From an uncultured Alphaproteobacteria bacterium (GTDB lineage Bacteria; Pseudomonadota; Alphaproteobacteria; M2410): 64,000 nt of DNA. Position 1 is the stretch's first letter. Every line of letters begins with the position of its first letter. Under the pieces are notes generated by a model. It did not search any database and was not told the DNA's origin. It saw only the letters and a program-made list of their open reading frames with translations. The position numbers were made by a program, and so were the translations under genes. Of the stretch, positions 1,545 through 51,670 are shown in pieces. The stretch spans positions 5,933 to 69,932 of the forward strand of contig CBFDBJ010000004.1 of assembly GCA_965603015.1 (NCBI GenBank). Direction: 5' to 3'.

Positions 1545-3353
1545 TTGTATGTTTTGTCCATGCAAAATGAACTCTTTGACAAAGACCCTTTATGGGATCT
1601 GTCGGCTCTCTATCCAACGATGGACAGTCCGAAAATTCGTGAAGATCTTGAGCACGCCTCACAGTGGGCCGATGACTTTTGTAGCCGCTTTGAGGGCAAG
1701 CTTGCTGTGCTTCTGGGGTCTGCCGATGGCCCGGCGCAGCTCGGAGCCGCGCTGCAGGAATACAATGATCTGGGTGAACTGGCGGATCGTCCCTCGGTCT
1801 ATTCCTTCCTGGTTCATGCCTGTGCCGGGGATGACGCCGCGGTTGGCAAGTTTTACGGAGCGACCCGCGAAGCGGTCACAGCGATTTACTCCAAAACACT
1901 GTTCTTTGCACTGGAGCTTAATTCGCTTGCAGACGAGGTGCTGGACAAAGCCTGGTGCGATCCGAAGGTTGCCGAGTATCGTCCATGGATCGAAGCCATT
2001 CGGGCCGAGCGCCCGTGGCAATTGTCGACGGATCTGGAGCGCTTGCTGCATGACAAGAGCCTGACCGGGAGCCAGGCCTGGAACCGTCTCTTTGATCAGC
2101 TCATGGTATCGCTTCGGTTTGATATTGGTAATGAACGGCTGACCAGCGAAGAGGCTTTTGCCCGGCTTGCAGACGCAAAGACCGAGACTCGCAAACAGGC
2201 GGCGACGGGATTGTCGAAAACCTTTGCTGAAAACAAAACTGTCTTTTCCCATATCACCAATACACTGGCCAAGGACAAGGCCATTGAGACCGAGTGGCGC
2301 GGGCAGCCGGATATGGCGACGGCGCGGCACTCCTCCAATAGAGTTGAAGCGGAGGTTGTCGAAGCGCTGACAGCGACGGTCAAGGCATCCTATGCCGATA
2401 CCGCGCATCGCTACTATGCGCTCAAAGCCAAATGGCTCGGCGTGGACGCGCTGGATTTCTGGGACCGCAATGCGCCGCTTCCAGGATCTGATGATCACCT
2501 TATCCCCTGGACGGAGGCAAAGGACATTGTGCTGACAGCCTTCGGCGGGTTTGAACCGAAGATGGCCGATATTGCGCGGCGCTTCTTTGAGGAAAACTGG
2601 ATTGATGCGCCAGCCCGGTCAGGCAAGACCGGCGGTGCGTTTTCCCATCCGTCGGTGCCGAGCGCGCATCCTTATGTGCTGGTCAATTACCTCGGCAAGC
2701 CGCGCGATGTGGCAACGCTGGCTCATGAGCTGGGCCACGGCGTTCATCAGTATCTGGCGGCGCCGCGCGGTAACATTCTGGCCGACACGCCGTTGACACT
2801 GGCGGAGACGGCCAGCGTCTTTGGTGAGATGTTGACGTTTCAGTCGCTCCTGGAGCGCGCCAGTGATGCAGCCTCGCGCAAGCGGCTGATTGCCGGCAAG
2901 GTTGAGGACATGCTCAACACTGTTGTACGTCAGATCGCCTTTTATGATTTTGAGCGCCGTATTCACGCCGCGCGTCTGGACGGCGAGCTGACGGCGGATG
3001 AAATTGGCGCAATCTGGCTCGACGTTCAGCGTGAGAGCCTCGGACCTTCGGTCAAGATGAACCCGGGCTATGAGACCTGGTGGTGCTATATCCCGCATTT
3101 TCTGCATACACCGTTTTATGTCTATGCCTACGCGTTTGGTGAATGTCTGGTGAACTCGCTCTACGCGGTCTATCAGCGTGAACCGGACGGCTTTCAGGAG
3201 AAATATCTGACCATGCTGGCCGCCGGGGGTACCCTGCGCCATAAGGAGCTGCTGGCACCGTTCGGTCTTGATGCCTCAAAACCTGATTTCTGGCAGGAAG
3301 GCATGTCGGTGATTTCCGGGTTTATCGACCAGCTGGAAGCGATGGAGGGGTGA
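1545..3353 (+). CDS. pepF: Oligoendopeptidase F family (M3B) metallopeptidase
   Basis: 602 aa with the HELGHGVHQY zinc HEXXH motif and M3-family length and architecture. Confidence 0.8.
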   Translation: MYVLSMQNELFDKDPLWDLSALYPTMDSPKIREDLEHASQWADDFCSRFEGKLAVLLGSADGPAQLGAALQEYNDLGELADRPSVYSFLVHACAGDDAAVGKFYGATREAVTAIYSKTLFFALELNSLADEVLDKAWCDPKVAEYRPWIEAIRAERPWQLSTDLERLLHDKSLTGSQAWNRLFDQLMVSLRFDIGNERLTSEEAFARLADAKTETRKQAATGLSKTFAENKTVFSHITNTLAKDKAIETEWRGQPDMATARHSSNRVEAEVVEALTATVKASYADTAHRYYALKAKWLGVDALDFWDRNAPLPGSDDHLIPWTEAKDIVLTAFGGFEPKMADIARRFFEENWIDAPARSGKTGGAFSHPSVPSAHPYVLVNYLGKPRDVATLAHELGHGVHQYLAAPRGNILADTPLTLAETASVFGEMLTFQSLLERASDAASRKRLIAGKVEDMLNTVVRQIAFYDFERRIHAARLDGELTADEIGAIWLDVQRESLGPSVKMNPGYETWWCYIPHFLHTPFYVYAYAFGECLVNSLYAVYQREPDGFQEKYLTMLAAGGTLRHKELLAPFGLDASKPDFWQEGMSVISGFIDQLEAMEG

Positions 3354-3418
3354 AACCGGCCCGCGAGCCAGGCTCAAACCCCTTGGCAAATGACCCGGCG
3401 TGGCTTAACCCAGTCCTC

Positions 3419-4402
3419 ATGAGTAATGACAGAGAAAAATTTGAGGCGCAGTGGCCCGATCTCGGCGAGGCCGTTTTCACCCTGGCGCCCTTTCAGGGGG
3501 CGAGGCCGCCGGCACCGCAATGGTTTGTCAAAGCTCTGGCAGACAAGCCTGAAGAACACTTCATTGAGGTTGACGGCGTGCAGATCCAGTATCTGCGTTG
3601 GGGCGACCGGGCAAAACCGGGCCTCATTCTGTCCCACGGCAACGGTGCCCATGCCCATTGGTGGGCCTTTATCGCACCTTATCTCGCGCAGGAGTACAAT
3701 GTAGCGGCTCTCAGCTTTTCCGGGATGGGGGATAGCCAGGAGCGCAACAGCTACTCCCTTGAAGACTACGCGCGGGAGCAAATTGCGGTCTGTGAACATT
3801 CCGGCATGTTTGAGAATGACGAGCCGCCGATTATCGTAGCGCACTCTTTCGGCGGCTTTGCCACCATGGTGACCGGTGCGCTCTATGGCGACCGTCTTGC
3901 CGGCGTGATTATTGTCGACAGCCCGATTAATCCTGACCGGGACGGGGGGCCGCCGGATCGTGAGGGGCGGCCGCACCGGATCTACCCGACGCTGGCAGCA
4001 GCGCTGGCGCGGTTCCGTCTTGCACCGCCGCAGACCTGCGAAAATGCCTATATTGTCGATTACATCGCCCGCAACTCTCTTAAAGAAGTTGAGGGCGGCT
4101 GGACCTGGAAGTTTGATCCACTGATCTGGCAGCGTTTTGAAATCGGAGATCGGGCTCAAAGGCTCAAGGAGATCTCCTGCCGCCTTGCCATCATGCGGGG
4201 CGAACGCTCGCTGATTTTTCCGCCCGAGATTGGCGACTATATGTTTGAACTTCTGGGCAAGAATGTTCCGGTCATCGAAATTCCCGAGGCTCAGCACCAT
4301 ATCATGCTGGATCAGCCGCTGGCCTTTGTTGCGGCCCTGAGAGCCTTGCTGGGCGACTGGAACCACTCAAAACCGAATCGAAAAGGTCCTGTGTCCAGCT
4401 GA
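3419..4402 (+). CDS. Alpha/beta-fold hydrolase
   Basis: HGNGAHAHWW oxyanion region, AHSFGG nucleophile elbow (GxSxG) and a C-terminal His. Alternative GTG start at 3350 overlaps the pepF stop (GTGA). Confidence 0.7.
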   Translation: MSNDREKFEAQWPDLGEAVFTLAPFQGARPPAPQWFVKALADKPEEHFIEVDGVQIQYLRWGDRAKPGLILSHGNGAHAHWWAFIAPYLAQEYNVAALSFSGMGDSQERNSYSLEDYAREQIAVCEHSGMFENDEPPIIVAHSFGGFATMVTGALYGDRLAGVIIVDSPINPDRDGGPPDREGRPHRIYPTLAAALARFRLAPPQTCENAYIVDYIARNSLKEVEGGWTWKFDPLIWQRFEIGDRAQRLKEISCRLAIMRGERSLIFPPEIGDYMFELLGKNVPVIEIPEAQHHIMLDQPLAFVAALRALLGDWNHSKPNRKGPVSS

Positions 4403-4528
4403 TAACAGGGGTTTGGCGGGGCCCTGGATGGGTCAGGCGGGCGGATACTTTGTCGCATTGTTCGGGCCTTGCCCTTCGAGCTGCTTTCGCCTATTTTGCG
4501 CCGCAACAATGATGTAAGGATTCGTAGA

Positions 4529-4639
4529 ATGGATATTTCCCAAAACCAGAAAACCTGGGTCAACTTTGTTCGGCTGGTCAAGTACAGCTCGATTGTGGTC
4601 TTCGGGTCGACGCTTGTCTTGATGTTTATCTTTGGCTAG
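4529..4639 (+). CDS. 36-aa single-TM micro-protein resembling aa3-type cytochrome oxidase subunit IV (PF07835-like)
   Basis: MDISQNQKTWVNFVRLVKYSSIVVFGSTLVLMFIFG; the K-T-W-x-x-F motif followed by a hydrophobic helix matches my recollection of the CoxIV_pro_2 family. TAAGGA sits 12 nt upstream. The gene lies immediately upstream of pntAA, as is frequent in alphaproteobacteria. It is absent from the ORF track because it is under 60 aa. Confidence 0.4.
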   Translation: MDISQNQKTWVNFVRLVKYSSIVVFGSTLVLMFIFG

Positions 4640-4782
4640 ATCGTGAACGAGGGCGAGACATTTCTTGTTTCCCTCGTTTAGGCTCAAATTTGATCATGAG
4701 GTCGGGCGGTTTTGTCCGATTGTGATCACCTGAGTTGCCGCAATAACAATAATAAATTTTCTATTTCTGAGGGCACCTTCCC

Positions 4783-12734: not shown

Positions 12735-13463
12735 TCACTCTTGAGACGGGGTCTTTCCGGCGTGTTTGGTGTCTTCGGCGTTGCGTTCGGCGACGCGGCG
12801 AAGGATTGCCTTTGTGTGCAGGATAGAAAACATTTGTTCGGCGTGCGCAAGGCCCTGCTGCGCAAGGGCGGCGGCCTCGTCGGTGGACCGGGTGCCGGGA
12901 ATTCGATCATAGAAATGTTCGACCTCCTGATCGGCAAGCATCTCCGCGGCGTCCTTGTAGCGTTTCATCTCATGGGCAGAATATCCGATGCCGCGATCAA
13001 ACCCCGCATCCTTTACCTCGGCCCATAGCCGCGCAATGCGAGCATCCTGTCCGGAGAGGGTGGGGCCCATCGGTTCGTCTCTGATTGTAATGAGGCCGTC
13101 CGCAGACAGGGCCTGGATATCGGCGGTATCCAGAGATGTTGTTTCGATCAGCTCTTTTACCGAGATGGCTGCGCCGGTGTTGGCGCCCAGACGAGCGGCC
13201 AAAAGGAATTCAAGTCCGACAAGGTTTGGTGTGCCGATCTCGCCTGGCGCGGGGTTTTCAAGCAGGTCGCGAATGACACCAAGCGGCAGGAAGCGTTCGT
13301 CTTTCAGCTTTTTGATAAGCTGGATACGGCCGACATGATCTTCAGAGTAGATCGCCACATTGCGGCGCGGCTTTTCCGGCTCGGGCAAAAGGCCTTCGCG
13401 AATGTAGAAACGGATGGCCTCGCGCCCGATGCCCGTCCGCTCCTCCAGTTCCTTCATCTTCAT
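12735..13463 (-). CDS. MerR-family transcriptional regulator with a ~170-aa C-terminal effector domain
   Basis: N-terminal MerR helix-turn-helix MKMKELEERTGIGREAIRFYIREGLL; the gene ends the P450 gene string. Confidence 0.75.
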   Translation of the reverse strand: MKMKELEERTGIGREAIRFYIREGLLPEPEKPRRNVAIYSEDHVGRIQLIKKLKDERFLPLGVIRDLLENPAPGEIGTPNLVGLEFLLAARLGANTGAAISVKELIETTSLDTADIQALSADGLITIRDEPMGPTLSGQDARIARLWAEVKDAGFDRGIGYSAHEMKRYKDAAEMLADQEVEHFYDRIPGTRSTDEAAALAQQGLAHAEQMFSILHTKAILRRVAERNAEDTKHAGKTPSQE

Positions 13464-13473
13464 GATATGCGCC

Positions 13474-14793
13474 TTATGACTTCAACGGGTGCAACACGAC
13501 CTGCATATCGGTGATGCCCATGACGAAGCAGGAATGAAGGTGTTTGGTTTCTCCAACGACTTCCACTTTGTCAAAGCGGTTCATAATTTCTTCCCAGAGA
13601 ATTCTGAGCTGCATTTCGCCAACCCGATTGCCCATGCAGCGGTGAATACCGAAACCGAAGGATACATGGTGACGGGCTCTGGCCCGATCAATCAGAAACT
13701 CACTTGCACGGTCGATCACCTCATCATCACGATTGCCAGAGATGTACCACATGATGACCTTGTCGCCTTTTTTGATCTGCTTGCCACCCAGTTCGATGTC
13801 TTCCAGAGCGGTGCGACGCATGTGCCCGAGGGGCGTAACCCAGCGAATGATTTCGGAAACCATATTGGGGATCAGGTCCGGGTTGGCTCTGAGCTTGTCA
13901 TATTCTGCCGGGTTTTGGTTCAGGGCCAGGACGCCGCCGGAAATCGAGTTGCGGGTCGTATCATTACCGCCGACGATGAGCAGGATCAGGTTGCCGAGGA
14001 ACTCCATCGGATCGTTGATCATCTCCGAGGTGTCCGGATTTGTAGCCAGCAGCGAAATCAAATCACTTGAGCCCTGATTTTCGGTTCTGTTCTGCCACTT
14101 TTCCATGAAGTAATGCAGACATTCCATGAGCTCTTCGCGGCGAACGTCCTCGCTGACAATTGTTCCATCGGCCAGGGCCTCTTCCTCTGAAATGGCTGTC
14201 GCCACATCCGACCAGCGGATCAGCTTGTGTCGATCTTCCTGGGGCACATCAAAGAGCGTCGCCAGGGTCATCGCTGTGAGCTCAACAGAGACTTTTTCAA
14301 CCCAGTTGAAGGGTTCGCCAACGGGAAGACCGTCCAGAATTTTTCCAACCCGCTCGCGAATTGTACTTTCAAGTTTCGCCAGGTTCATCGGCGCTACAGC
14401 CGGCGTGACAGATTTTCTCTGCACATCGTGTTTTGGTTGATCCATGGCGATGAAGTTCCTGAAATCAAAGTCAGGATCCGGATCGACGACAGTGATCGTT
14501 TTGTCCGAGGAAAAAACCTTGTGGTTGGTGTCAACGGCGACGATGTCGTTGAATTTCGTGACCGACCAGAACGGCCCGAACTCACCGTCCTTACAATAGT
14601 GAACCGGATCTTCCTTGCGCAGCCGTTCAAAATACTCAAAGTGCTTTTGGGCTTCGAAGATATAACTATCGCTCATGTTGATGTCTTCCAGAGCAATGTC
14701 ATAGGCCGAGGGCACATTGTCTACGGAGCCAAGGTTGGCAAACTCCCGATTGCGGTTTGAAAGGTCAGCGTCGGGGGGCGTTATATCCGTCAT
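13474..14793 (-). CDS. Cytochrome P450 of the CYP153 (alkane/terminal hydroxylase) family, paralogue 1
   Basis: Heme loop HHVSFGFGIHRCMGNRVGEMQLRILWEEI, I-helix LLIVGGNDTTRNSISGGVLALNQ, EIIRWVTPLGHMRRTALEDIEL and N-terminal FEYFERLRKEDPVHYCKDGEFGPFWSVTKFNDIVAVDTNHKVFSS all match the CYP153A sequences I recall. Start set at MTDIT with AGAGGA upstream. Confidence 0.85.
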   Translation of the reverse strand: MTDITPPDADLSNRNREFANLGSVDNVPSAYDIALEDINMSDSYIFEAQKHFEYFERLRKEDPVHYCKDGEFGPFWSVTKFNDIVAVDTNHKVFSSDKTITVVDPDPDFDFRNFIAMDQPKHDVQRKSVTPAVAPMNLAKLESTIRERVGKILDGLPVGEPFNWVEKVSVELTAMTLATLFDVPQEDRHKLIRWSDVATAISEEEALADGTIVSEDVRREELMECLHYFMEKWQNRTENQGSSDLISLLATNPDTSEMINDPMEFLGNLILLIVGGNDTTRNSISGGVLALNQNPAEYDKLRANPDLIPNMVSEIIRWVTPLGHMRRTALEDIELGGKQIKKGDKVIMWYISGNRDDEVIDRASEFLIDRARARHHVSFGFGIHRCMGNRVGEMQLRILWEEIMNRFDKVEVVGETKHLHSCFVMGITDMQVVLHPLKS

Positions 14794-14917
14794 CTTTTTT
14801 CCTCTTTTGTAAAACTGTGTGCCGAGCTGAGCGTCGATAACGCTGTTCGGGCCAATCGTTATCGTGATCCGGCACATATTGACGGGTCATGAAAACCGAT
14901 CAGGCCAGATTGTTGTA

Positions 14918-16186
14918 TCAGGATTTTAACGGGTGCAGCTTGACCATCATTTCGGTAATGCCCATGACAAAGTTTGAACGCAGACGTCCAGGCTCACCGA
15001 TAACCTCGACCTTTTCGAAGCGCTTCAGGATTTCTTCCCAAAGGATCCGCAACTGCATCTCGCCAACACGGTTGCCCATGCAGCGGTGAATGCCGAAGCC
15101 GAAGGAGAGATGATGACGCGCCTTGTCACGGTCGATGATGAATTCGTTGGCGCGGTCGATGACTTCGTCATCGCGGTTGCCGGAAATGTACCACATGACG
15201 ACCCGGTCACCTTTTTTGATTTGCTTGCCGTTTAACTCGGTATCTTCAAGAGCGGTGCGGCGCATGTGGCCCAGCGGCGTGACCCAGCGAATGATTTCTG
15301 ACACCATATTGGGGATAACCTCGGGGTTGGCACGCAGCTTGTCATATTCTGCCGGGTTCTGGTTGAGCGCCAGGACGCCGCCGGAAATCGAGTTGCGGGT
15401 CGTGTCGTTGCCGCCGACAATGAGCAGCATCAGATTGCCAAGGAATTCGAGCGGATCATTGGACATTTCCATTGTGTCGGGATTGGTCGCAAGCAGTGAG
15501 ATGAAGTCGGTGCCTTCATAGTTTTCGCCGCGGTCGCCCCACAGTTTCATGAAATATTCGAGACATTCCATCAGCTCTTTCTTGCGCTCTTCTTCGTTGA
15601 CGATGGAACCGTCAGCACCGGTTTGATCCGGGCTCGATGTCGTTACATCCGACCACCAGGTCAACTTGCGTCTGTCTTCCCAGGGAAAGTCAAACAGTAC
15701 GGCCAGCATTCGGGTCGTCAGCTCAATCGAGACCTGGTCGACCCAGTCAAAACTTTCACCAACGGGAAGACTGTCAAGAATCTCACAAACATTCTCGCGA
15801 ATGAGCGCCTCCAGTTTTGCCAGATTGACAGGCGCAACAGCGGGCGTGACAACTTTTCTTTGAACGTCATGTTTTGGCTGGTCCATGGCGATGAACATGG
15901 GCGGATTGAAGTCAGGGTCCGCATCGCCGATCACGATGGTCTTGTCAGAAGAGAAGACCTTGTGATTGGTATCGACAGCCACAATGTCGTTGAATTTTGT
16001 AATCGACCAATAGGGGCCGAACTCGCTGTCCTTGCAATAATGGACCGGGTCCTCCTTGCGCAGCCGTTCAAAATACTCAAAGTGCTGCTGGGTTTGAAAG
16101 AGCAAGCCATCACTGACGTCAATATCTTCCAGTGGTACGTCATAGGCACTTGGTGGTCTGGTGTTCTGGTCGTGGGCCACGGTCAT
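14918..16186 (-). CDS. Cytochrome P450 of the CYP153 family, paralogue 2
   Basis: Shares ~80% of residues with paralogue 1 and carries the same heme-binding, I-helix and EXXR motifs. Confidence 0.85.
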   Translation of the reverse strand: MTVAHDQNTRPPSAYDVPLEDIDVSDGLLFQTQQHFEYFERLRKEDPVHYCKDSEFGPYWSITKFNDIVAVDTNHKVFSSDKTIVIGDADPDFNPPMFIAMDQPKHDVQRKVVTPAVAPVNLAKLEALIRENVCEILDSLPVGESFDWVDQVSIELTTRMLAVLFDFPWEDRRKLTWWSDVTTSSPDQTGADGSIVNEEERKKELMECLEYFMKLWGDRGENYEGTDFISLLATNPDTMEMSNDPLEFLGNLMLLIVGGNDTTRNSISGGVLALNQNPAEYDKLRANPEVIPNMVSEIIRWVTPLGHMRRTALEDTELNGKQIKKGDRVVMWYISGNRDDEVIDRANEFIIDRDKARHHLSFGFGIHRCMGNRVGEMQLRILWEEILKRFEKVEVIGEPGRLRSNFVMGITEMMVKLHPLKS

Positions 16187-16215
16187 GGATCTTGCTCCCC
16201 TTTAGAGTTCAACTA

Positions 16216-16536
16216 TCAGAATTGGGCAATCGGCAGACGGACGACAAGCCCGTCAAGGTCGTCAGTCACCTTGATTTGACAGGCAAGGCGGCTGGTTTCT
16301 TCGGCGGCTTCGGCGAAATCCAGCATGGTCACTTCCATGTCCGTTTTGGTGCCGGTTTTCGACTGCCATTCAGGGTCGACGTAAATGTGGCAGGTGGCGC
16401 AGGCGCAGGCCCCGCCGCAATCCGCGTCGATTCCTGGTACAAGATTGTTCACTGCGCCTTCCATCAGGGAAAGCCCGACGGCGACTTCGACTTTATGTTC
16501 GCTTCCGTTGTTCTCAATGTAGGTAACGCGTGGCAT
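16216..16536 (-). CDS. [2Fe-2S] ferredoxin of the putidaredoxin/adrenodoxin type
   Basis: 106 aa with cluster ligands [11 protein letters not shown]...LACQ. Confidence 0.85.
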
Positions 16537-16681
16537 TCAGCCCTCCCTTTTTGCGTAGTATGAGTACGTATTGCGAACTGTAATCAGTAAATCCCGCAGG
16601 TCAAGTGTGGAATTTGTCTAATCTGGAGGTCGGTCGAAGGTCAGGCCCTCTGGTGGGCGCGAAAGCCTCAGGCCTTCAACC

Positions 16682-17953
16682 TCAGGCTTTCAGGGGGTGA
16701 AGCCGGACGGGCAGTTCAGTGATCCCCATGACGAAGTTGGAGCGCAGGCGGGTGGGTTCGCCGACGACTTCGACCTTTTCAAAGCGCTTCAGGATTTCCT
16801 CCCACAGGATGCGGAGCTGCATTTCACCGACACGGTTGCCCAGGCAGCGGTGAATGCCAAAGCCGAACGAGAGGTGATGGCGCGCCCTGGCACGATCAAT
16901 CAGGAATTCATCGGGGCGATCAATAGCCTCCTCATCGCGGTTGCCCGAGATATACCACATGACCACCTTGTCACCCTTTTTGATCAGCTTGCCGCCGAGC
17001 TCATAGTCCTCGAGCGCGGTGCGCCGCATGTGGGCGAGCGGTGTGACCCAGCGAATGATTTCAGGGACCATGTTGGGAATGATATCGGGGTTGGCGCGCA
17101 GCTTGTCATATTCCTTTGGGAACTGATTGAGGGCGAGGAGACCGCCGGAAATCGAGTTGCGCGTCGTGTCGTTGCCGCCGACAATCAGCAGGATCAAATT
17201 GCCAAGAAACTCGAGCGGGTCCTTTGTTAGATCCTTCGTGTCGGGATTGGTGGCAAGCAGGGAAATGAAATCAGTGCCCTGATAGTTCTCGCCGCGAGAG
17301 GCCCAGAGATTTTTGAAATAATCGATGCACTCGAGCAGTTCCTTCTTGCGCCCTTCTTCGGATATGAAGGCAGCATCCGTGCCGCTTGATTCTGGCCTTG
17401 AGGTCGCAACATCTGACCAGCGCGGCAGCATGCGGCGATCTTCCCAGGGGAAGTCAAACAGGGTTGCCAGCATCTGGGTGGTCAGTTCGATTGAGACCCG
17501 GTCGACCCAGTCGAAGGTTTCGCCGACCGGCAAATCGTCGAGGATTGTGCAGACGCGTGTCCGAATGAGCGCTTCCAGTTGTGCCAGATTGACCGGCGCA
17601 ACGGCCGGCGTAGCGGCTTTTCTCTGCACATCGTGGACGGGGGGATCGGAAGCAATGAAGCTGGAGGTTTGAAATTCGGGGTCGGGGTCTCCGATGACAA
17701 TGGCGGGCTCGGAGGAAAAGACCTTGTGATTGGTATCGACCGCGACGATGTCATCGAATTTCGTGATCGACCAGAACGGCCCGAAGGCGCTCTCGCTGCA
17801 GAAATGAACAGGATCTTCCTTGCGGAGCCGTTTGAAATAATCCCAGTGCCGTTGATTTTGAAAGAGATGGCTGTCGCTGACATCAAGAGTGTCCAGCGGG
17901 AGGTTCCAGGGGCCTGATAATTGATCGGCTTTGTGATCGTCGGCAAGGCTCAT
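16682..17953 (-). CDS. Cytochrome P450 of the CYP153 family, paralogue 3
   Basis: HLSFGFGIHRCLGNRVGEMQLRILWEEILKRF, LLIVGGNDTTRNSISGGLLALNQ and EDPVHFCSESAFGPFWSITKFDDIVAVDTNHKVFSS. Confidence 0.85.
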   Translation of the reverse strand: MSLADDHKADQLSGPWNLPLDTLDVSDSHLFQNQRHWDYFKRLRKEDPVHFCSESAFGPFWSITKFDDIVAVDTNHKVFSSEPAIVIGDPDPEFQTSSFIASDPPVHDVQRKAATPAVAPVNLAQLEALIRTRVCTILDDLPVGETFDWVDRVSIELTTQMLATLFDFPWEDRRMLPRWSDVATSRPESSGTDAAFISEEGRKKELLECIDYFKNLWASRGENYQGTDFISLLATNPDTKDLTKDPLEFLGNLILLIVGGNDTTRNSISGGLLALNQFPKEYDKLRANPDIIPNMVPEIIRWVTPLAHMRRTALEDYELGGKLIKKGDKVVMWYISGNRDEEAIDRPDEFLIDRARARHHLSFGFGIHRCLGNRVGEMQLRILWEEILKRFEKVEVVGEPTRLRSNFVMGITELPVRLHPLKA

Positions 17954-18037
17954 CAGCTCATCTCCCTTTTACGATAACAGTTCGCAGGATCGATGATATC
18001 TGGATATTTCGTCCGGTCAATATGGAACCGCGTTCAC

Positions 18038-19627
18038 CTAACCCTCCAGTTCCACGAAATTAAGAGCTTGATTGGCGGTTCTCATGACGTGGCGCCTCTT
18101 TACCGAGTTCTGCAAAAACCGGTTCAGGGCGGCTGTCATGAGAGAGACTTGCGGACCTTGCGGCCTTGCTGTGATCTCCCTTTGTGTTGCGGTAATGAGT
18201 TTGACGATGTGACAGGAAACGATGTGCTCGAACTGGGCGTGATCGAAGAGGATTTCTTTGGCCTCACTGACAAAGGGCTCAGGGTTGTCCACATTGAATT
18301 CGCTTGTATCGAGATCCTTGTCGACAAAGGGTGTGTTGCGTCCAAGGAAACAGGCCATTTGCAGAAGCCCTTGCGGCCAGAGATCCGGATAGCGCGTGCA
18401 AAGCTCGTGGACGGAATTGGCAAAAGTTATGGCGTGGGTGAAGTTGAGCCAGTCGACGTTGTGGGAGATGTTGGTGCCGGTGTGGCGCTGGAATTCGAGA
18501 TCAAAGTGGAGAAAATTCCAGGCATTGGCCGCAAGCAGGGCGTCATAGAGTGCGCGCGGATCTGATGAACTCCCTGTCGCCTTTGCCAGAGCCTGGCGGA
18601 CAGACAGGCCCTTGAAGTCTTGCCAGTCTACCGGCGCTTCGCCCTTGTTGGTCCAGTTTTTCAGGGCATCGCGGTAATTGCGAAACTCGGGAATAAGATC
18701 CTCCCGTCTGGCATAGACGAGTTCGCGCATCAGAGCCAGGGTTGCCGGCACCATGATCCTTTCGCCCAGCCTGTCGACGAGCTGACCGATTTTGAGCACA
18801 TAGATGGTCGCGTGGCCAAACCCCTGATAGTGGGCGAAGGCGGCGCGGGCGAGAGCCGGTTCGATGTCTCTATATCTGAGGCCAGCACGTGCGGCGCCGC
18901 GAATAAGTGCAGCGGCCTCGTCTTCATGTTCGCCCTCAACGGCGGTTACAAATGTGTCTTCGTTCCACTGAGCAACTGCATCCGTAAAAGGATAATCGGG
19001 CTCGCGGCGCGTGTCCCATGCGATATGGGCGGTCGGCTCAAGGAAGGTGATGAGGTGTTTTGCCGGATTGTCGTGAACTTCGTCTGCGAGCGTCATCCAG
19101 TCGGCGGCGGCGGCAAAGGGATGGCCCATGCCATATTCGAATTTCTCGTGTGAGCGCAGAACGGCGTTGGCCAGAACGTCCTTCAAGTTTCCGCCATCCT
19201 TTTTGTAGCGGGCGAGTTCGCGGGCGATGCGGTCATAGTCGTAATCGTCCCAGGCTTCGCTCAGGTTTTCGAGGATCCTCGGAAGTCTCTGTCCAGGTGC
19301 AGGATCAGATAAATCAACGAGGACTTCGCCATTCTTGACCTTGACGGGATAGAGGCGAACTGCATCGCCGCCGACCATGGCCTCTCCTGTGGTCAGGTCA
19401 AATTTCCAGTTGTGCCAATTGCAGGTTAGAGTGCAGGTGCCAGGGCCGCTGCCTGTCAGCGTGCCTTCGGCAAGGGGATAGCCTTCATGGGGGCAGCGAT
19501 TGTTGCAAGCGAAGGTCTCACCGTCTCGCAGGATTACGAGGACCTGCTTGCCGTTTTTCTTGAAGACCTTTTGGCCTTTTTCTTCCAGTTCGCTCAGAGG
19601 TCCCGCAGATGTCCAGATCTGGTTCAT
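18038..19627 (-). CDS. Rieske [2Fe-2S] domain fused to a ~420-aa domain of unknown function
   Basis: N-terminal Rieske motifs CPHEG...(21 aa)...CNWHNW. Start set at MNQIWTS (ATG 19627) with AAAGGAG upstream; the track's longer ORF to 19729 would overlap the divergent regulator. No DxxHxxxxH mononuclear-iron motif of Rieske oxygenase alpha subunits is recognisable in the C-terminal part. Confidence 0.7.
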   Translation of the reverse strand: MNQIWTSAGPLSELEEKGQKVFKKNGKQVLVILRDGETFACNNRCPHEGYPLAEGTLTGSGPGTCTLTCNWHNWKFDLTTGEAMVGGDAVRLYPVKVKNGEVLVDLSDPAPGQRLPRILENLSEAWDDYDYDRIARELARYKKDGGNLKDVLANAVLRSHEKFEYGMGHPFAAAADWMTLADEVHDNPAKHLITFLEPTAHIAWDTRREPDYPFTDAVAQWNEDTFVTAVEGEHEDEAAALIRGAARAGLRYRDIEPALARAAFAHYQGFGHATIYVLKIGQLVDRLGERIMVPATLALMRELVYARREDLIPEFRNYRDALKNWTNKGEAPVDWQDFKGLSVRQALAKATGSSSDPRALYDALLAANAWNFLHFDLEFQRHTGTNISHNVDWLNFTHAITFANSVHELCTRYPDLWPQGLLQMACFLGRNTPFVDKDLDTSEFNVDNPEPFVSEAKEILFDHAQFEHIVSCHIVKLITATQREITARPQGPQVSLMTAALNRFLQNSVKRRHVMRTANQALNFVELEG

Positions 19628-19710
19628 GGTCAATGCACTCCTTTTTAAAGATATTTCTTTATAAATATAGAGGGCTTGCCTTTTATCAAGAAAAAACTTT
19701 ATAAAATGGT

Positions 19711-20376
19711 ATGACTGGCAAATCATCACATAAAGAACCCGGCTTCGCAGATGGTTCGCAAAAGACCCGCGACAGGGTCATTTCGCTCCTGAAACGCGAG
19801 GGACCACAGGATGCAGGGGTCCTTGCGGCAAGACTTGGCGTTAGCGCCATGGCCGTGCGCCAGCATCTCTATGAGTTAAGCGATCAGGGCCTGGTGACTG
19901 CATCCGAGCAGAAAGGCGCGATTGGGAGGCCGACAAAAATCTGGGCACTGGACGTGACCGCGAGTGGCCTCTTTCCGGATGGTCATGGTGATTTTACTTA
20001 TGAGCTTATTGGCTCCATTCGGGAGACCTTCGGCGAGGAAGGCATGGCGAGCCTTTTGCGCAATCGTTCGGAGAAGCAAATCACCTCCTATAAGAATCAG
20101 ATGGGCGATGGGTCGCTCAGTCAGCGTCTTGAGCGCCTCGCGGCGATCCGCAGCGAGGAGGGCTATATGGCCGACGTGACAGAGGCGGAGGACGGATCTC
20201 TCCTGATGGTGGAGAACCATTGCCCGGTCTGCCAGGCCGCAAAAGCCTGCAGCGGCCTCTGTGCGGAGGAGTTGCATGTCTTTCAGGCGTGTCTGGGTCA
20301 GAGTGTGAAGATTGAGAGGGCCGATCATATCCTGGCCGGTGCGCGGCGGTGTGCCTACCGGGTCACGGCCATCTGA
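19711..20376 (+). CDS. Winged-helix (ArsR/MarR-like) transcriptional regulator with a Cys-rich C-terminal region
   Basis: HTH segment RVISLLKREGPQDAGVLAARLGVSAMAVRQHLYELSDQGLV and C-terminal HCPVCQAAKACSGLCAEELHVFQAC...RRCAY (putative metal or Fe-S ligands). Transcribed divergently from the Rieske/P450 string. Confidence 0.55.
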   Translation: MTGKSSHKEPGFADGSQKTRDRVISLLKREGPQDAGVLAARLGVSAMAVRQHLYELSDQGLVTASEQKGAIGRPTKIWALDVTASGLFPDGHGDFTYELIGSIRETFGEEGMASLLRNRSEKQITSYKNQMGDGSLSQRLERLAAIRSEEGYMADVTEAEDGSLLMVENHCPVCQAAKACSGLCAEELHVFQACLGQSVKIERADHILAGARRCAYRVTAI

Positions 20377-20638: not shown

Positions 20639-20889
20639 TTGTCTTCAATCCTCAATTTCTTGCATCAGGTCTTCAGCGCCGGTTTTCCGACGATTATTCA
20701 TGTGTAACGGTCCATCTTCGGGGATTCTCCGTCACGAGGGGGCTTCAATAGCGCAATAGCAGGGCTCTGTCCATGCCGATTCCTCTGTAATCCACACCAT
20801 AGCAGGGATTTCCTGCCAATAGCCTTAATTACGCGATTGTTTTGTTACGATCTATGGACGCGAGGGGGCGAAACACCCATATTGGCCCC

Positions 20890-21462
20890 ATGGCAATACT
20901 CAAAATCGCAAAGATGGGCCATCCGGTCCTGGGACGGGTCGCAGATCCCGTTACAGACCCAAAAGCCCCGGAAATACAGGCCCTTATCCGGGATATGATC
21001 GTCACCATGCATGACGCAAACGGGGCGGGGCTGGCCGCGCCGCAGGTTCATGTGCCGCTCAGGGTAGTGGTCTACCATGCTCCGGCGGCCCGCAGTGAAG
21101 ACGATGAGCATGACGGCCACGAAACCGCGCCCCTGACCGTGCTTATCAATCCCGAGATTGAGCCTATAGGCGACGTGACATCGACCGGCTGGGAGGGCTG
21201 CCTGTCGGTGCCCGGTCTGCGCGGCGAGGTGACACGGCCAGGTCACATCCGATATCGGGCCCTGAACGGCGAAGGCGAAGTGGTTGAAGGGGAGGCCAGC
21301 GGCTTTCATGCCCGCGTCATTCAACATGAATGCGATCATCTGGACGGTATCCTCTACCCCCAGCGCATGTCGGATTTAAGAACGCTGATCTTTGACAGTG
21401 AGGTGCGGCATATCATTGATGCCGATGGAGCTGATGATACGGATGAGGAGGCTGCGGAATGA
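20890..21462 (+). CDS. def: Peptide deformylase
   Basis: GAGLAAPQV, EGCLSVPG and QHECDHLDG metal-binding motifs; start set at MAILKIAK. Confidence 0.85.
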   Translation: MAILKIAKMGHPVLGRVADPVTDPKAPEIQALIRDMIVTMHDANGAGLAAPQVHVPLRVVVYHAPAARSEDDEHDGHETAPLTVLINPEIEPIGDVTSTGWEGCLSVPGLRGEVTRPGHIRYRALNGEGEVVEGEASGFHARVIQHECDHLDGILYPQRMSDLRTLIFDSEVRHIIDADGADDTDEEAAE

Positions 21463-22121
21463 GTGACACTTCCTCTGCGGACCTGAGACAGGCCATTCTC
21501 GAAGCAGCTCTCAAGGACATTCCCTTTGATGGCTGGACCAATGAAGTGTTGCGCAAGGTCGGTGAGGCAAAGGGCGTGTCGCTCGATGAAATCGATCTGC
21601 TTTTTCCGCGTGGCTCGGTCGATCTCCTGGAGGCGTTTTCTCACGCCGCGGATGCACATATGGTCCGCGCCCTGGAGGGTGTCGATCTTGCGTCTCTCAA
21701 GATCCGTCAGCGGATTACCCTTGGCGTGCGTTCGCGCATTGAGTTTCTTCAAGGCCACCGTGAGGCTTCGCTTCGGGCTGCGAGCGTTCTTGCGCTTCCG
21801 GTTCATGGCGTTCTGGCTGCGCAGCTGCTGGCGCGTACTGTTGATCTGGCATGGCGCGGTATCGGGGATACCTCGACGGATTTTAATTTTTATACCAAGC
21901 GCGCAACGCTCAGCCTTGTCCTGAGTTCGACGCTGTTTTACTGGATGACCGACGAGGCGGAAGATCTGGCGCCGACATGGGAATTTCTTGATCGCCGGAT
22001 CGAGAATGTCATGCAGTTTGAAAAGACCAAGGCGAGGGTTAAAAAAGCGGCGGCGAACATGCCTTCACCGGTCGAGCTCCTCGCCAAAATACGCTATGCC
22101 GGTTCGCGCTTTAAAGTGTGA
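21459..22121 (+). CDS. COQ9-family / RpsU-divergently-transcribed protein
   Basis: 220-aa TetR-like fold protein in the conserved alphaproteobacterial position next to rpsU; its start overlaps the def stop (ATGA). Confidence 0.55.
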   Translation: MSDTSSADLRQAILEAALKDIPFDGWTNEVLRKVGEAKGVSLDEIDLLFPRGSVDLLEAFSHAADAHMVRALEGVDLASLKIRQRITLGVRSRIEFLQGHREASLRAASVLALPVHGVLAAQLLARTVDLAWRGIGDTSTDFNFYTKRATLSLVLSSTLFYWMTDEAEDLAPTWEFLDRRIENVMQFEKTKARVKKAAANMPSPVELLAKIRYAGSRFKV

Positions 22122-23262
22122 GTGGCAAATCGTCTTTTGACTTCAGGCTGCCTTTGGCAAAGAGCCGCGTTGCGTGAGCCATTTTGCGGCCCGCGCGCGC
22201 TTCTGTCTTGCCATAGAGCGTCAGAAGAACGTCTTCCATTTTAGCAATCATCGGCCATTTTTCGATATCGGAGCCGATAAGATTGTACATGATCGCGTCG
22301 GAATGGCGGCCCGGAGTGACTAACGGCCAGCCGCAGATGGCGCGGATGTGCTGTTCGAATTGCGAAATCGTGCAGGCGGCTTCGGTCCAGTGACCGGAAT
22401 TGTGGACGCGCGGGGCAATCTCGTTGATCAGGATGGTTTCGTCCTTCATGACAAAGAACTCGACACCGATGACGCCGACATAGCCCAGCTCCGTGAGAAT
22501 GTTCTCTGCCGCTGCCCGAGCGGCGGCAATCGTTTTGTCGCTCACCCGTGCGGGCACGATTGTTGCGCTGAGAATATGATCGCGGTGAATGTTCTCACCG
22601 GGCGTCCAGGTTACGGTTTCACCCGTGTGCGCACGGGCTGCAATAACGGAAATCTCGCAATCAAAGGGGATGAAACCTTCCAGGATAGACGGCGCGCCTT
22701 TCATTGCGGCCCAGGCATCTTCCATGTCATTTTCTGTACGGATGATGCTTTGACCTTTGCCATCGTATCCAAAGCGGCGTGTTTTGAGAACGGCGGGGAG
22801 TCCGATTTCAGATGCGGCGGCGCGAAGATCCTCAAGAGTATCAACCGGTTTAAAAGGGGCTGTCGTCTGCCCAATGGATGTCAGGAATGTCTTTTCAGTC
22901 AGCCGGTCCTGGGCAACATCGAGCGCCCGTGCTGCGGGAAACAGCCTTGTGTGCCTGGCCAGCTCAGCCGCCGTTTCAGCCGGGACATTTTCAAATTCGT
23001 AAGTTGCGACATCAACTGTGTCGCCGAACCGGGCGATGGCCTCAAGGTCATCGTAGGCGGCGACGGTTTCGGCATGGGCGACCTGGCCCGCCGGGCTGTG
23101 TCCGCTGCTGCCGTCAGGAAAACCGTCCGGTGAAAAAATATGGGTTCGAAAGCCAAGGTTTGCTGCGGCGAGCGCCAACATGCGCCCGAGCTGGCCACTG
23201 CCCAATATGCCGATGGTTGAACCGGGCCGGAGTGGAGACAGTGGTGCGGGATTTTCGGTCAT
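22111..23262 (-). CDS. purK: N5-carboxyaminoimidazole ribonucleotide synthase
   Basis: ATP-grasp protein, IGILGSGQLGRMLALAA, 383 aa, immediately downstream of purE. Confidence 0.85.
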   Translation of the reverse strand: MTENPAPLSPLRPGSTIGILGSGQLGRMLALAAANLGFRTHIFSPDGFPDGSSGHSPAGQVAHAETVAAYDDLEAIARFGDTVDVATYEFENVPAETAAELARHTRLFPAARALDVAQDRLTEKTFLTSIGQTTAPFKPVDTLEDLRAAASEIGLPAVLKTRRFGYDGKGQSIIRTENDMEDAWAAMKGAPSILEGFIPFDCEISVIAARAHTGETVTWTPGENIHRDHILSATIVPARVSDKTIAAARAAAENILTELGYVGVIGVEFFVMKDETILINEIAPRVHNSGHWTEAACTISQFEQHIRAICGWPLVTPGRHSDAIMYNLIGSDIEKWPMIAKMEDVLLTLYGKTEARAGRKMAHATRLFAKGSLKSKDDLPLTL

Positions 23263-23274
23263 AGTGTGTGGCTA

Positions 23275-23778
23275 TCAAGCCTCGTCTACGGGGATATCTG
23301 CAATGGCTCTGGTCTGGTCCTCGCTCCAGGCGCGGACGGCCGCAGCGACAGCATCATCTCCCAGGGCGACAATTCTGGCGGCAAGAAGCGCCGCATTGAT
23401 GGCGCCGGCCTTGCCAATGGCGAGCGTGCCGACAGGGATGCCGCCGGGCATTTGAACGATCGACAAGAGACTGTCCTGGCCGCTGAGGGCTTTGCTCTCG
23501 ATAGGGACACCAAGAACCGGGAGCTCTGACCAGGAGGCTGTCATGCCCGGAAGATGGGCGGCGCCGCCGGCACCGGCAATAATCACCTTGAGACCGCGGG
23601 ATTTTGCTGATTTTGCATAATCACGCATCCGGTCCGGCGTACGGTGGGCCGAGACAATTTTGGTCTCAAAGGAAACGCCCAGTTTTTTGAGGGTTTCCGA
23701 CGCATTGCGCATGGTGGGCCAGTCAGACTGGCTGCCCATTATAATGCCGACATCGATGCCAGTTGCGATAGGGGCCAT
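23275..23778 (-). CDS. purE: N5-carboxyaminoimidazole ribonucleotide mutase
   Basis: [14 protein letters not shown]...[10 protein letters not shown]...[14 protein letters not shown]; the 168-aa product starts at MAPIAT, while the track ORF extends upstream. Confidence 0.85.
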
Positions 23779-24043
23779 GGCTTGCTTCCCGGCCCTGACG
23801 GGCCTTTTCAATGGAGAATGCCTCGGGAATGCAATGTATTTTGCGACAACCAGGGCAATGCAGGAAAGCGCGGGATTATAGGCAGGCGCGCCGCGAAGGC
23901 AAGGATATTGATTCCACACCAGTGTGGTGAGAAATTGATTATTGACCCCATAGTTAGCGCCGCGTTAACGAATTATTTGCCGCCAGGGGGGCGTAATCAG
24001 GCAAGGGCCAATCAGACTTCGTGGCGATGGAGAAAACCTGCCC

Positions 24044-51469: not shown

Positions 51470-51670
51470 GGCTGATGGCGGGCTCTGCCCGATTTGTCAG
51501 GAAGCCCTTTCCCTGAGGCCTTAATCTTCTTCTCGGGAGCTGTCCCTTGTTTGGACCGTGGTCCTTACGAAACGGCGCCCACCTGCTGAGTGCAGGCCCA
51601 CGAGGAACTCTCGCTTCCAACGGTTACGGTGGACCCGCCACTCCTCTCCATACCGCAGGCTCAAACGACG
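51470..51670 (+). ncRNA. ssrS: Candidate 6S RNA (ssrS); the ends are approximate
   Basis: A ~210-nt non-coding gap between zapA and 5-formyltetrahydrofolate cyclo-ligase. This is the conserved zapA-ssrS-ygfA synteny, and the GC-rich sequence has paired-arm potential. It has not been verified against a covariance model. Confidence 0.4.

Follow-up and report, generated by a model that had tools for sequence, protein, structure and literature searches.

This analysis revealed that a gene on the minus strand of a 64,000-nucleotide stretch from an uncultured alphaproteobacterium (contig CBFDBJ010000004.1, positions 5,933 to 69,932; hereafter the window) encodes a 529-residue fusion protein in which an N-terminal Rieske [2Fe-2S] domain is joined to an all-helical domain of about 420 residues. 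With moderate confidence, we interpret this protein as a self-contained, Rieske-fed oxygenase with two metal centres and a new architecture, encoded by an autonomous unit with its own regulator. The interpretation draws on the Rieske domain itself, the similarity of the helical fold to that of a family of non-heme iron dioxygenases, the invariance and spacing of a set of residues, the gene neighbourhood statistics, two palindromic boxes upstream of the gene, and a separate promoter in front of the neighbouring cytochrome P450 genes. A first-pass annotation, made from the sequence of the window, had described the gene as heading a P450 operon and its product as a possible novel electron-transfer partner, sensor or enzyme.

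The fusion gene is complete (18038..19627), as seen from its open reading frame and translation, with an ATG at 19627 and a stop codon at 18038-18040; its strand had not been given in the first-pass annotation. The ATG is preceded on its 5' side by an AAGGAG ribosome-binding site, and homologues of 525-545 amino acids share the same start position. A longer version starting from a GTG at 19729 is unlikely, because it would overlap the divergent regulator gene and the operator region described below.

Residues 1-105 (19313..19627) constitute a genuine Rieske domain of the ferredoxin type. Pfam recognised both PF00355 (Rieske; E 1.8e-14, 53.8 bits against a cut-off of 20.3) and PF13806 (Rieske_2; E 1.1e-11, 45 bits against a cut-off of 27) over residues 5-104. 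The four predicted cluster ligands lie in the motifs CPH (residues 45-47) and CNWH (residues 69-72), namely C45 (codon 19493-19495), H47 (19487-19489), C69 (19421-19423) and H72 (19412-19414), and are invariant in all 187 relatives, which confirms the Rieske signature that the first-pass annotation had read in the first ~105 residues. The best match among Protein Data Bank (PDB) sequences is the ferredoxin of naphthalene dioxygenase (NDO; 2qpz, E 3.7e-8), and Foldseek aligned the modelled domain to BphA3 and to the NDO ferredoxin with target template-modelling scores (TM-scores) of 0.85-0.90. Its nearest relatives are free Rieske ferredoxins and NirD rather than the alpha subunits of oxygenases, and it is predicted to bind a cluster. 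Two extra cysteines, C41 (19505-19507) and C65 (19433-19435), each stand four residues before a cysteine ligand; they are present in 171 and 185 of the 187 members, respectively, are both rarer in divergent members, and might pair in a disulfide bond or modulate the cluster. At 21 residues, the loop that separates the two pairs of ligands is unusually long, and it has a lower predicted local distance difference test (pLDDT) score.

The remainder of the protein, residues 110-529 (18041..19300), is not recognised by sequence, as had been stated before. No match to Pfam, NCBIfam or PDB sequences was obtained for these residues, using the full protein, the domain alone, phmmer and two family profiles, and the searches of PDB sequences with phmmer and with family profiles A3 and A4 gave nothing for this domain at E<=10; Pfam searches of 41 close and 19 divergent members at E<=10 were likewise negative for it. 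The absence of a flavin- or nicotinamide-binding GxGxxG motif, also noted at the outset, was confirmed for the fusion protein. The same applies to the DxxHxxxxH motif that provides the mononuclear iron ligands of Rieske oxygenase alpha subunits: the sole string resembling it, at residues 182-191, is not conserved in relatives. Ring_hydroxyl_A, VanA_C and similar Pfam or NCBIfam families gave no match outside the Rieske part, so the Pfam check for a known Rieske non-heme oxygenase catalytic domain in residues 110-529, which had been put forward as a way to refute the novelty of the protein, came out negative. The C-terminal domain does not belong to the classical catalytic domains of Rieske oxygenases.

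Structural modelling indicated what the domain resembles. AlphaFold2, run without templates on an alignment of 41 sequences, gave a full-length model with a pLDDT of 89.3 and a predicted template-modelling score (pTM) of 0.85. A Foldseek search with this model returned nothing but Rieske ferredoxins, because the N-terminal domain dominates the comparison, and the C-terminal domain was therefore modelled separately (pLDDT 90.5, pTM 0.91). The model of this domain comprises 21 helices and no sheet, and the all-helical fold is one that it has in common with the DUF4243, or questin-oxidase, enzymes such as BTG13 and PaD. Other hits of the fold comparison scored 8.8 or less and covered only sub-bundles. 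Foldseek gave a much weaker result; only PaD reached a high probability of homology (0.95), at an E-value of 0.13 and a TM-score of 0.42. In the structural comparison that the first-pass annotation had recommended, the domain is all-helical and not START-like, and it resembles a characterised fold, that of BTG13 and PaD.

The enzymes BTG13, GedK, BruN and PaD are DUF4243 non-heme iron dioxygenases in which the iron is held by four histidines, a carboxylated lysine (Kcx) and a water molecule (PMC12173810, PMC11371914, PMC11575538). A corresponding set of putative ligands can be proposed in the fusion protein: H169 (codon 19121-19123), H272 (18812-18814), H398 (18434-18436), H473 (18209-18211) and K476 (18200-18202), with T401 (18425-18427) as a putative second-sphere residue. 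All six residues are identical in every one of the 187 members, and the five putative ligands are among only 15 invariant columns of a selected alignment that reaches down to 25% identity. Among the relatives at 25-35% identity, every one but P0217, a divergent representative outside the selected alignment, retains the whole set; P0217 has a glutamine at K476 and a leucine at T401. A further histidine, H463, is invariant in close members and lost in divergent ones.

The intervals between the five residues (103/126/75/3), as read from the sequence, nearly match those between the iron ligands of PaD (H63, H166, H317, H394 and Kcx397; 103/151/77/3; PMC11371914) and of BruN (H63, H166, H308, H386 and Kcx389; 103/142/78/3; PMC11575538). 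Part of the discrepancy in the middle interval comes from motif 2 of PaD, an insert of 13 residues located after its second histidine and before its third (PMC11371914). In BTG13, Thr299 forms a hydrogen bond with the carbamate of Kcx377 and is required for the carboxylation (PMC12173810). If PaD numbering is transferred to BTG13 by way of the stated inserts, which is our own derivation and not a published assignment, the third ligand of BTG13 would be approximately H296, and Thr299 would thus stand three residues after the third histidine. T401 likewise stands three residues after H398. When the C-terminal domain is numbered from its own beginning, the putative ligands fall at positions 60/163/289/364/367, as compared with 55/158/296/374/377 for the positions derived for BTG13, so that the two domains would be nearly collinear.

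The family is compact and well conserved, and the fusion appears to be universal within it. More than 2,600 matches to the fusion protein were found in a database clustered at 90%, and the gene is carried by at least 575 GTDB species genomes or loci, mostly of Rhodospirillales, Kiloniellales and other marine Alphaproteobacteria, with some in Gammaproteobacteria and SAR324. A search of 1.84 billion cluster representatives with the C-terminal domain alone retrieved, at E<=1e-3, 519 representatives of clusters formed at 50% identity. Every full-length member among them has 497-574 amino acids and an N-terminal extension of Rieske size (~105-150 residues), and each of the 15 divergent full-length members that were examined (~25-38% identity) contains the Rieske ligand motifs. 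An hmmsearch with the family hidden Markov model revealed no remote paralogue among 1,208 open reading frames of related loci. A tblastn search of plasmids gave three matches at E 5-7, of which the one that was checked (H2) lies antisense to an annotated gene and is spurious. Among 185,579 GTDB species genomes, the closest match to the fusion protein reaches only 52% identity, while metagenome assemblies contain matches at 92% and 83%; the lineage of the window seems to be one of Alphaproteobacteria without a close genome representative.

With regard to the genomic context, we surveyed 80 homologous loci in other genomes over 8 kb on each side. The only conserved neighbour is a regulator gene, which adjoins the fusion gene immediately upstream and divergently in 47 of the 80 loci; the remaining 33 loci lack the regulator and keep the fusion protein unchanged. 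The downstream genes vary from locus to locus and look like unrelated housekeeping genes. A CYP153-like gene was found in none of the 80 loci, and one locus contains an unrelated P450 (30% identity). This survey answers the co-occurrence check that the first-pass annotation had proposed, and its outcome goes against the reading that prompted it. Given the regulator in 47 loci, the variable downstream genes, the near absence of P450 genes and the co-occurrence of the boxes described below with the regulator, we regard the fusion gene as autonomous. Candidate partners were considered and rejected: there is no conserved downstream operon partner, the neighbours being, among others, UvrB-like, CobB-like, AccBC-like and leucyl/phenylalanyl-tRNA-protein-transferase-like according to their sequence signatures, and an apparently conserved short-chain dehydrogenase/reductase (SDR) neighbour was dropped because it proved to be a heterogeneous single-linkage cluster (25-31% identity).

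In the window, the regulator is encoded on the plus strand (19711..20376), divergently from the fusion gene. It is a SufR-like protein of 221 amino acids with an ArsR-type winged helix-turn-helix domain, which matches NCBIfam TIGR02702 (SufR_cyano) over its full length (E 1.9e-38) with 132.2 bits, below the cut-off of 178.8. Its C-terminal part contains a conserved motif, H-C-P-x-C-x5-C-x3-C...C, and the cysteines C171, C174, C180, C184 and C214 are 97% conserved in 35 orthologues. The genes around it are the fusion gene, rpsU (S21) and def. The regulator is SufR-like rather than a SufR proper, given the score below the cut-off and the absence of suf genes from its surroundings.

The intergenic region shared by the two genes contains two palindromic operator-like boxes, TTTATAAAG-N6-CTTK, at 19644-19663 and 19687-19703, with the consensus TTTMTAAAG-N6-CTTKnnAAA. 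The box pattern has three matches in the window, all within 19644-19703, against 0.14 expected. Of the 47 loci with the regulator, 43 have the core box upstream of the fusion gene, as against one of the 33 loci without it. The boxes are likely an operator pair for the regulator, to which it is predicted to bind, and through these palindromes the regulator probably controls its own gene as well, as SufR does.

We infer iron binding, lysine carboxylation, electron flow and oxygenase chemistry for the fusion protein as follows. The ferredoxin-type Rieske domain would take single electrons from an unlinked reductase dependent on nicotinamide nucleotides (NAD(P)H), and these electrons would be handed on, inside one chain or from subunit to subunit, to the mononuclear non-heme iron that the helical domain would hold. 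The iron would be bound by H169, H272, H398, H473 and K476, the last two forming an H-x2-K motif, with K476 probably carboxylated and held in place by T401. Dioxygen activated at this iron may then oxidise an electron-rich aromatic or heteroaromatic substrate; that this substrate is hydroquinone-like is a guess by analogy with the DUF4243 enzymes. The divergent, cysteine-rich SufR-like protein would act as a repressor that binds the two boxes in the shared promoter region. To judge from its cysteine motif and its homology to SufR, it probably responds to the status of Fe-S clusters, to redox status or to electrophiles, and expression of the fusion gene is probably responsive to stress or to a ligand.

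Several observations weigh against this interpretation. No sequence method ties the C-terminal domain to DUF4243, and PF14027 (DUF4243) was unmatched at E<=10 in the 41 close and 19 divergent members searched. The grouping of the five residues into one putative site follows from their order, spacing and invariance. Another histidine, H266, is invariant as well and could replace H272 as the second ligand, or could have a role in the second sphere. The 80 loci provide neither a linked reductase gene nor any neighbour that hints at the substrate. Regulator homologues with 55-56% identity occur in Acidobacteriota-like contigs (L087, L089 and L090, at ~3150-4730), where they are divergent from an SDR (241 amino acids) and QueA, a protein of queuosine synthesis, with no Rieske fusion; the regulator is therefore neither diagnostic of function nor exclusive to the fusion gene, and its family has different targets in different phyla. 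Finally, the characterised DUF4243 enzymes need no electron input, which leaves the role of a fused Rieske domain without precedent (PMC11371914, PMC11575538). Taken together with the invariable presence of the Rieske domain, this last point suggests that the chemistry of the fusion protein would be unlike simple dioxygenolytic cleavage.

A more far-reaching proposal, which we put forward tentatively and hold to be somewhat less than an even chance, is that the fusion protein defines, as its first member, a new class of Rieske oxygenases. Such enzymes would carry a BTG13-type iron with four histidines and a carbamylated lysine in a helical domain, would depend on both reductant and CO2, would occur in marine Alphaproteobacteria and some Gammaproteobacteria, and would be switched on by a dedicated SufR-like sensor based on an Fe-S cluster or on thiols. 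Their chemistry would be new to both parent families; for example, a quinone or a heteroaromatic compound might be monooxygenated or have its ring opened reductively.

XylT-type ferredoxins re-reduce the oxidised iron of catechol 2,3-dioxygenase. By the same principle, the fusion protein might be a true BTG13-type dioxygenase without net consumption of electrons, in which the Rieske domain either re-reduces Fe(III), formed by accidental oxidation, to Fe(II) or reduces a quinone substrate to the hydroquinone; we consider this maintenance or priming role unlikely, although it fares best among the alternatives. The evidence from the fold and the putative ligands is the same for it as for the Rieske-fed oxygenase, and it would be in line with the lack of a dedicated, linked reductase gene. 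It also agrees with the finding that BTG13, GedK and BruN act only on hydroquinones supplied by a partner reductase and need no donor of their own (PMC11371914, PMC11575538). However, the universal fusion and the invariance of the Rieske ligands down to 25% identity suggest a stoichiometric role rather than occasional repair. Reduction of a quinone is disfavoured because Rieske centres are one-electron carriers and are not known to have quinone-reductase activity.

That the protein is a non-catalytic sensor of redox state, iron or Fe-S clusters, or a homeostasis protein, working with the SufR-like regulator and binding iron or a ligand without turnover, appears improbable. The possibility was raised in the first-pass annotation, and it would account for the fact that the sole conserved partner is a cysteine-rich SufR-like regulator, with no metabolic genes conserved nearby. 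In contrast, the fold and the invariant set of four histidines, lysine and threonine match an enzyme active site, the 33 loci without the regulator keep the protein unchanged, and members of the regulator family are also found where the fusion gene is absent.

The immediate downstream neighbours of the fusion gene form a cluster on the same strand (12735..17953), outside the conserved unit of the fusion gene. It begins with a P450 gene (16682-17953; Pfam p450) whose product is a true CYP153A, matching CYP153A7 (3rwl) at E 4.5e-165. The first-pass annotation was right about the shared strand and about CYP153; the gap is 84 bp and not 85 bp. It had described a single CYP153 in an operon lacking the usual reductase, whereas there are three tandem CYP153 paralogues (the other two at 14918-16186 and 13474-14877, both Pfam p450) with mutual identities of 69-77%. 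A Fer2 [2Fe-2S] ferredoxin of 106 amino acids (16216-16536; PF00111, E 1.5e-11), located between the first two paralogues, had been missed. No reductase containing flavin adenine dinucleotide (FAD) was found among the open reading frames of the window that were scanned, comprising most of the larger ones, so that this part of the description stands within that scope. A MerR regulator (12735-13463; Pfam MerR) lies at the end of the cluster; CYP153 operons are more usually regulated by AraC-type proteins.

The gap between the fusion gene and the first CYP153 gene contains a sigma-70-like promoter, TTGACC-N16-TATCAT (17993..18020, minus strand), identified by a promoter scan with 10 of 12 matches. 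A comparison of the window with four related loci (L081, L082, L084 and L085) showed that the -35 element TTGACC and the -10 element TATCAT/TAACAT are the longest conserved non-coding runs of the gap, which is otherwise conserved only at scattered single bases and at the GG of the ribosome-binding site. The CYP153 genes are most likely transcribed from this predicted promoter of their own, and its conservation marks the boundary of the unit of the fusion gene. No terminator was predicted in the gap, and read-through is possible. The order regulator, fusion gene, P450, Fer2, P450 (and P450), MerR is kept in relatives of 61-92% identity, all of them metagenomic, and the Fer2 ferredoxin is also present in the relatives L082, L083 and L085. 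The adjacency of the fusion gene and the CYP153 genes is thus a trait of one clade only, that of the window itself. Base composition was uninformative in this respect, with no sign of a recent insertion of the P450 cluster.

The co-occurrence survey, the separate promoter and the cluster's own ferredoxin speak against counting the fusion gene as part of the CYP153 operon or its product as a CYP153 redox partner, and the claim that it heads a P450 operon is not supported. That the protein is an electron-transfer partner of the CYP153 alkane hydroxylases, or its gene the first of their operon, is very improbable: the shared strand, the short distance to a genuine CYP153A, the persistence of this adjacency in the close relatives, the lack of an FAD reductase among the scanned reading frames and of a predicted terminator would favour it, but a P450 within 8 kb is missing from 79 of the 80 loci and is unrelated in the other one, the cluster's Fer2 ferredoxin is of the canonical CYP153 partner type and makes a novel P450 electron carrier unneeded, the conserved promoter separates the two units, the fusion gene has a regulator and operators of its own, and a conserved domain of 420 residues that resembles a metal-binding one would be needless for a ferredoxin.

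On the other side of the fusion gene, beside the regulator, lies a block comprising def, a gene for a COQ9-domain protein (21459-22121), purK and purE (20842-23919), which is syntenic in all close relatives (L081-L085); stand-alone bacterial COQ9-domain proteins are poorly characterised. Elsewhere, the window contains a 6S RNA (51479-51639, plus strand; Rfam RF00013, 51.1 bits, above the gathering score), and no tRNA gene was found within its 64 kb.

BTG13-type enzymes were described only in 2022, belong nearly all to fungal secondary metabolism and use no external electrons. They and the Rieske oxygenases are both active topics of non-heme iron research, which until now have been regarded as solutions unrelated to each other. 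The fusion architecture is unreported: in the literature searched, no paper joins a Rieske domain with DUF4243, questin, carboxylated lysine or SufR. Gene neighbourhood alone would mislabel the fusion protein as a P450 redox partner, and the present analysis corrects this tempting annotation. The pair of regulator and operator, moreover, offers a route to the inducing signal and thence to the substrate.

The regulator resembles SufR in its N-terminal winged helix-turn-helix domain and cysteine-rich C-terminal domain, in the full-length similarity and in being divergent from its target. It differs from SufR in its cysteine pattern, C-x2-C-x5-C-x3-C...C, and in its predicted operator, TTTMTAAAG-N6-CTTTA, which is unlike the CAAC-N6-GTTG of cyanobacterial SufR.

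As for the protein itself, the Rieske ferredoxins BphF/BphA3, NahAb, TodB and CarAc, as well as NirD, share the CxH...CxxH ligands; the Rieske ferredoxins, however, are free proteins of ~105 amino acids, whereas the fusion protein has an attached domain of 420 residues, a spacer of 21 residues between the ligand pairs, and the cysteines C41 and C65. The alpha subunits of Rieske oxygenases, such as naphthalene dioxygenase, carbazole dioxygenase and KshA, likewise combine an N-terminal Rieske domain with a larger domain that holds a mononuclear iron, which in the fusion protein is putative, and the feeding of electrons to an O2-activating iron is presumably common to both. Their catalytic domain, in contrast, has a START/Bet v 1-like fold and a triad of two histidines and one carboxylate, whereas the fusion protein is all-helical after residue 110 and has a putative site of four histidines and a lysine. 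The BTG13-type DUF4243 enzymes share the fold and the apparent ligands with the fusion protein, which differs from them in its lack of a PF14027 match, its taxon, its genomic context and its architecture. Bacterial DUF4243 enzymes acting on heteroaromatic substrates are known, namely OzmD and MinC/IndB, the latter being a fusion of a haloacid dehalogenase-type (HAD) phosphatase with DUF4243 (PMC6908994, PMC12173810). MinC/IndB provides a precedent for a bacterial DUF4243 fold fused to another domain; it differs in that the partner is a phosphatase and not a redox domain, in its C-nucleoside biosynthetic cluster, and in that its DUF4243 part is recognised by Pfam. If our interpretation is correct, the rare site built from four histidines together with a carboxylated lysine would extend to bacteria outside natural-product biosynthetic clusters, the fusion protein would offer a natural test of the effect of extra electrons on such an iron centre, and its helical domain would represent a third catalytic scaffold for Rieske-dependent oxygen activation.

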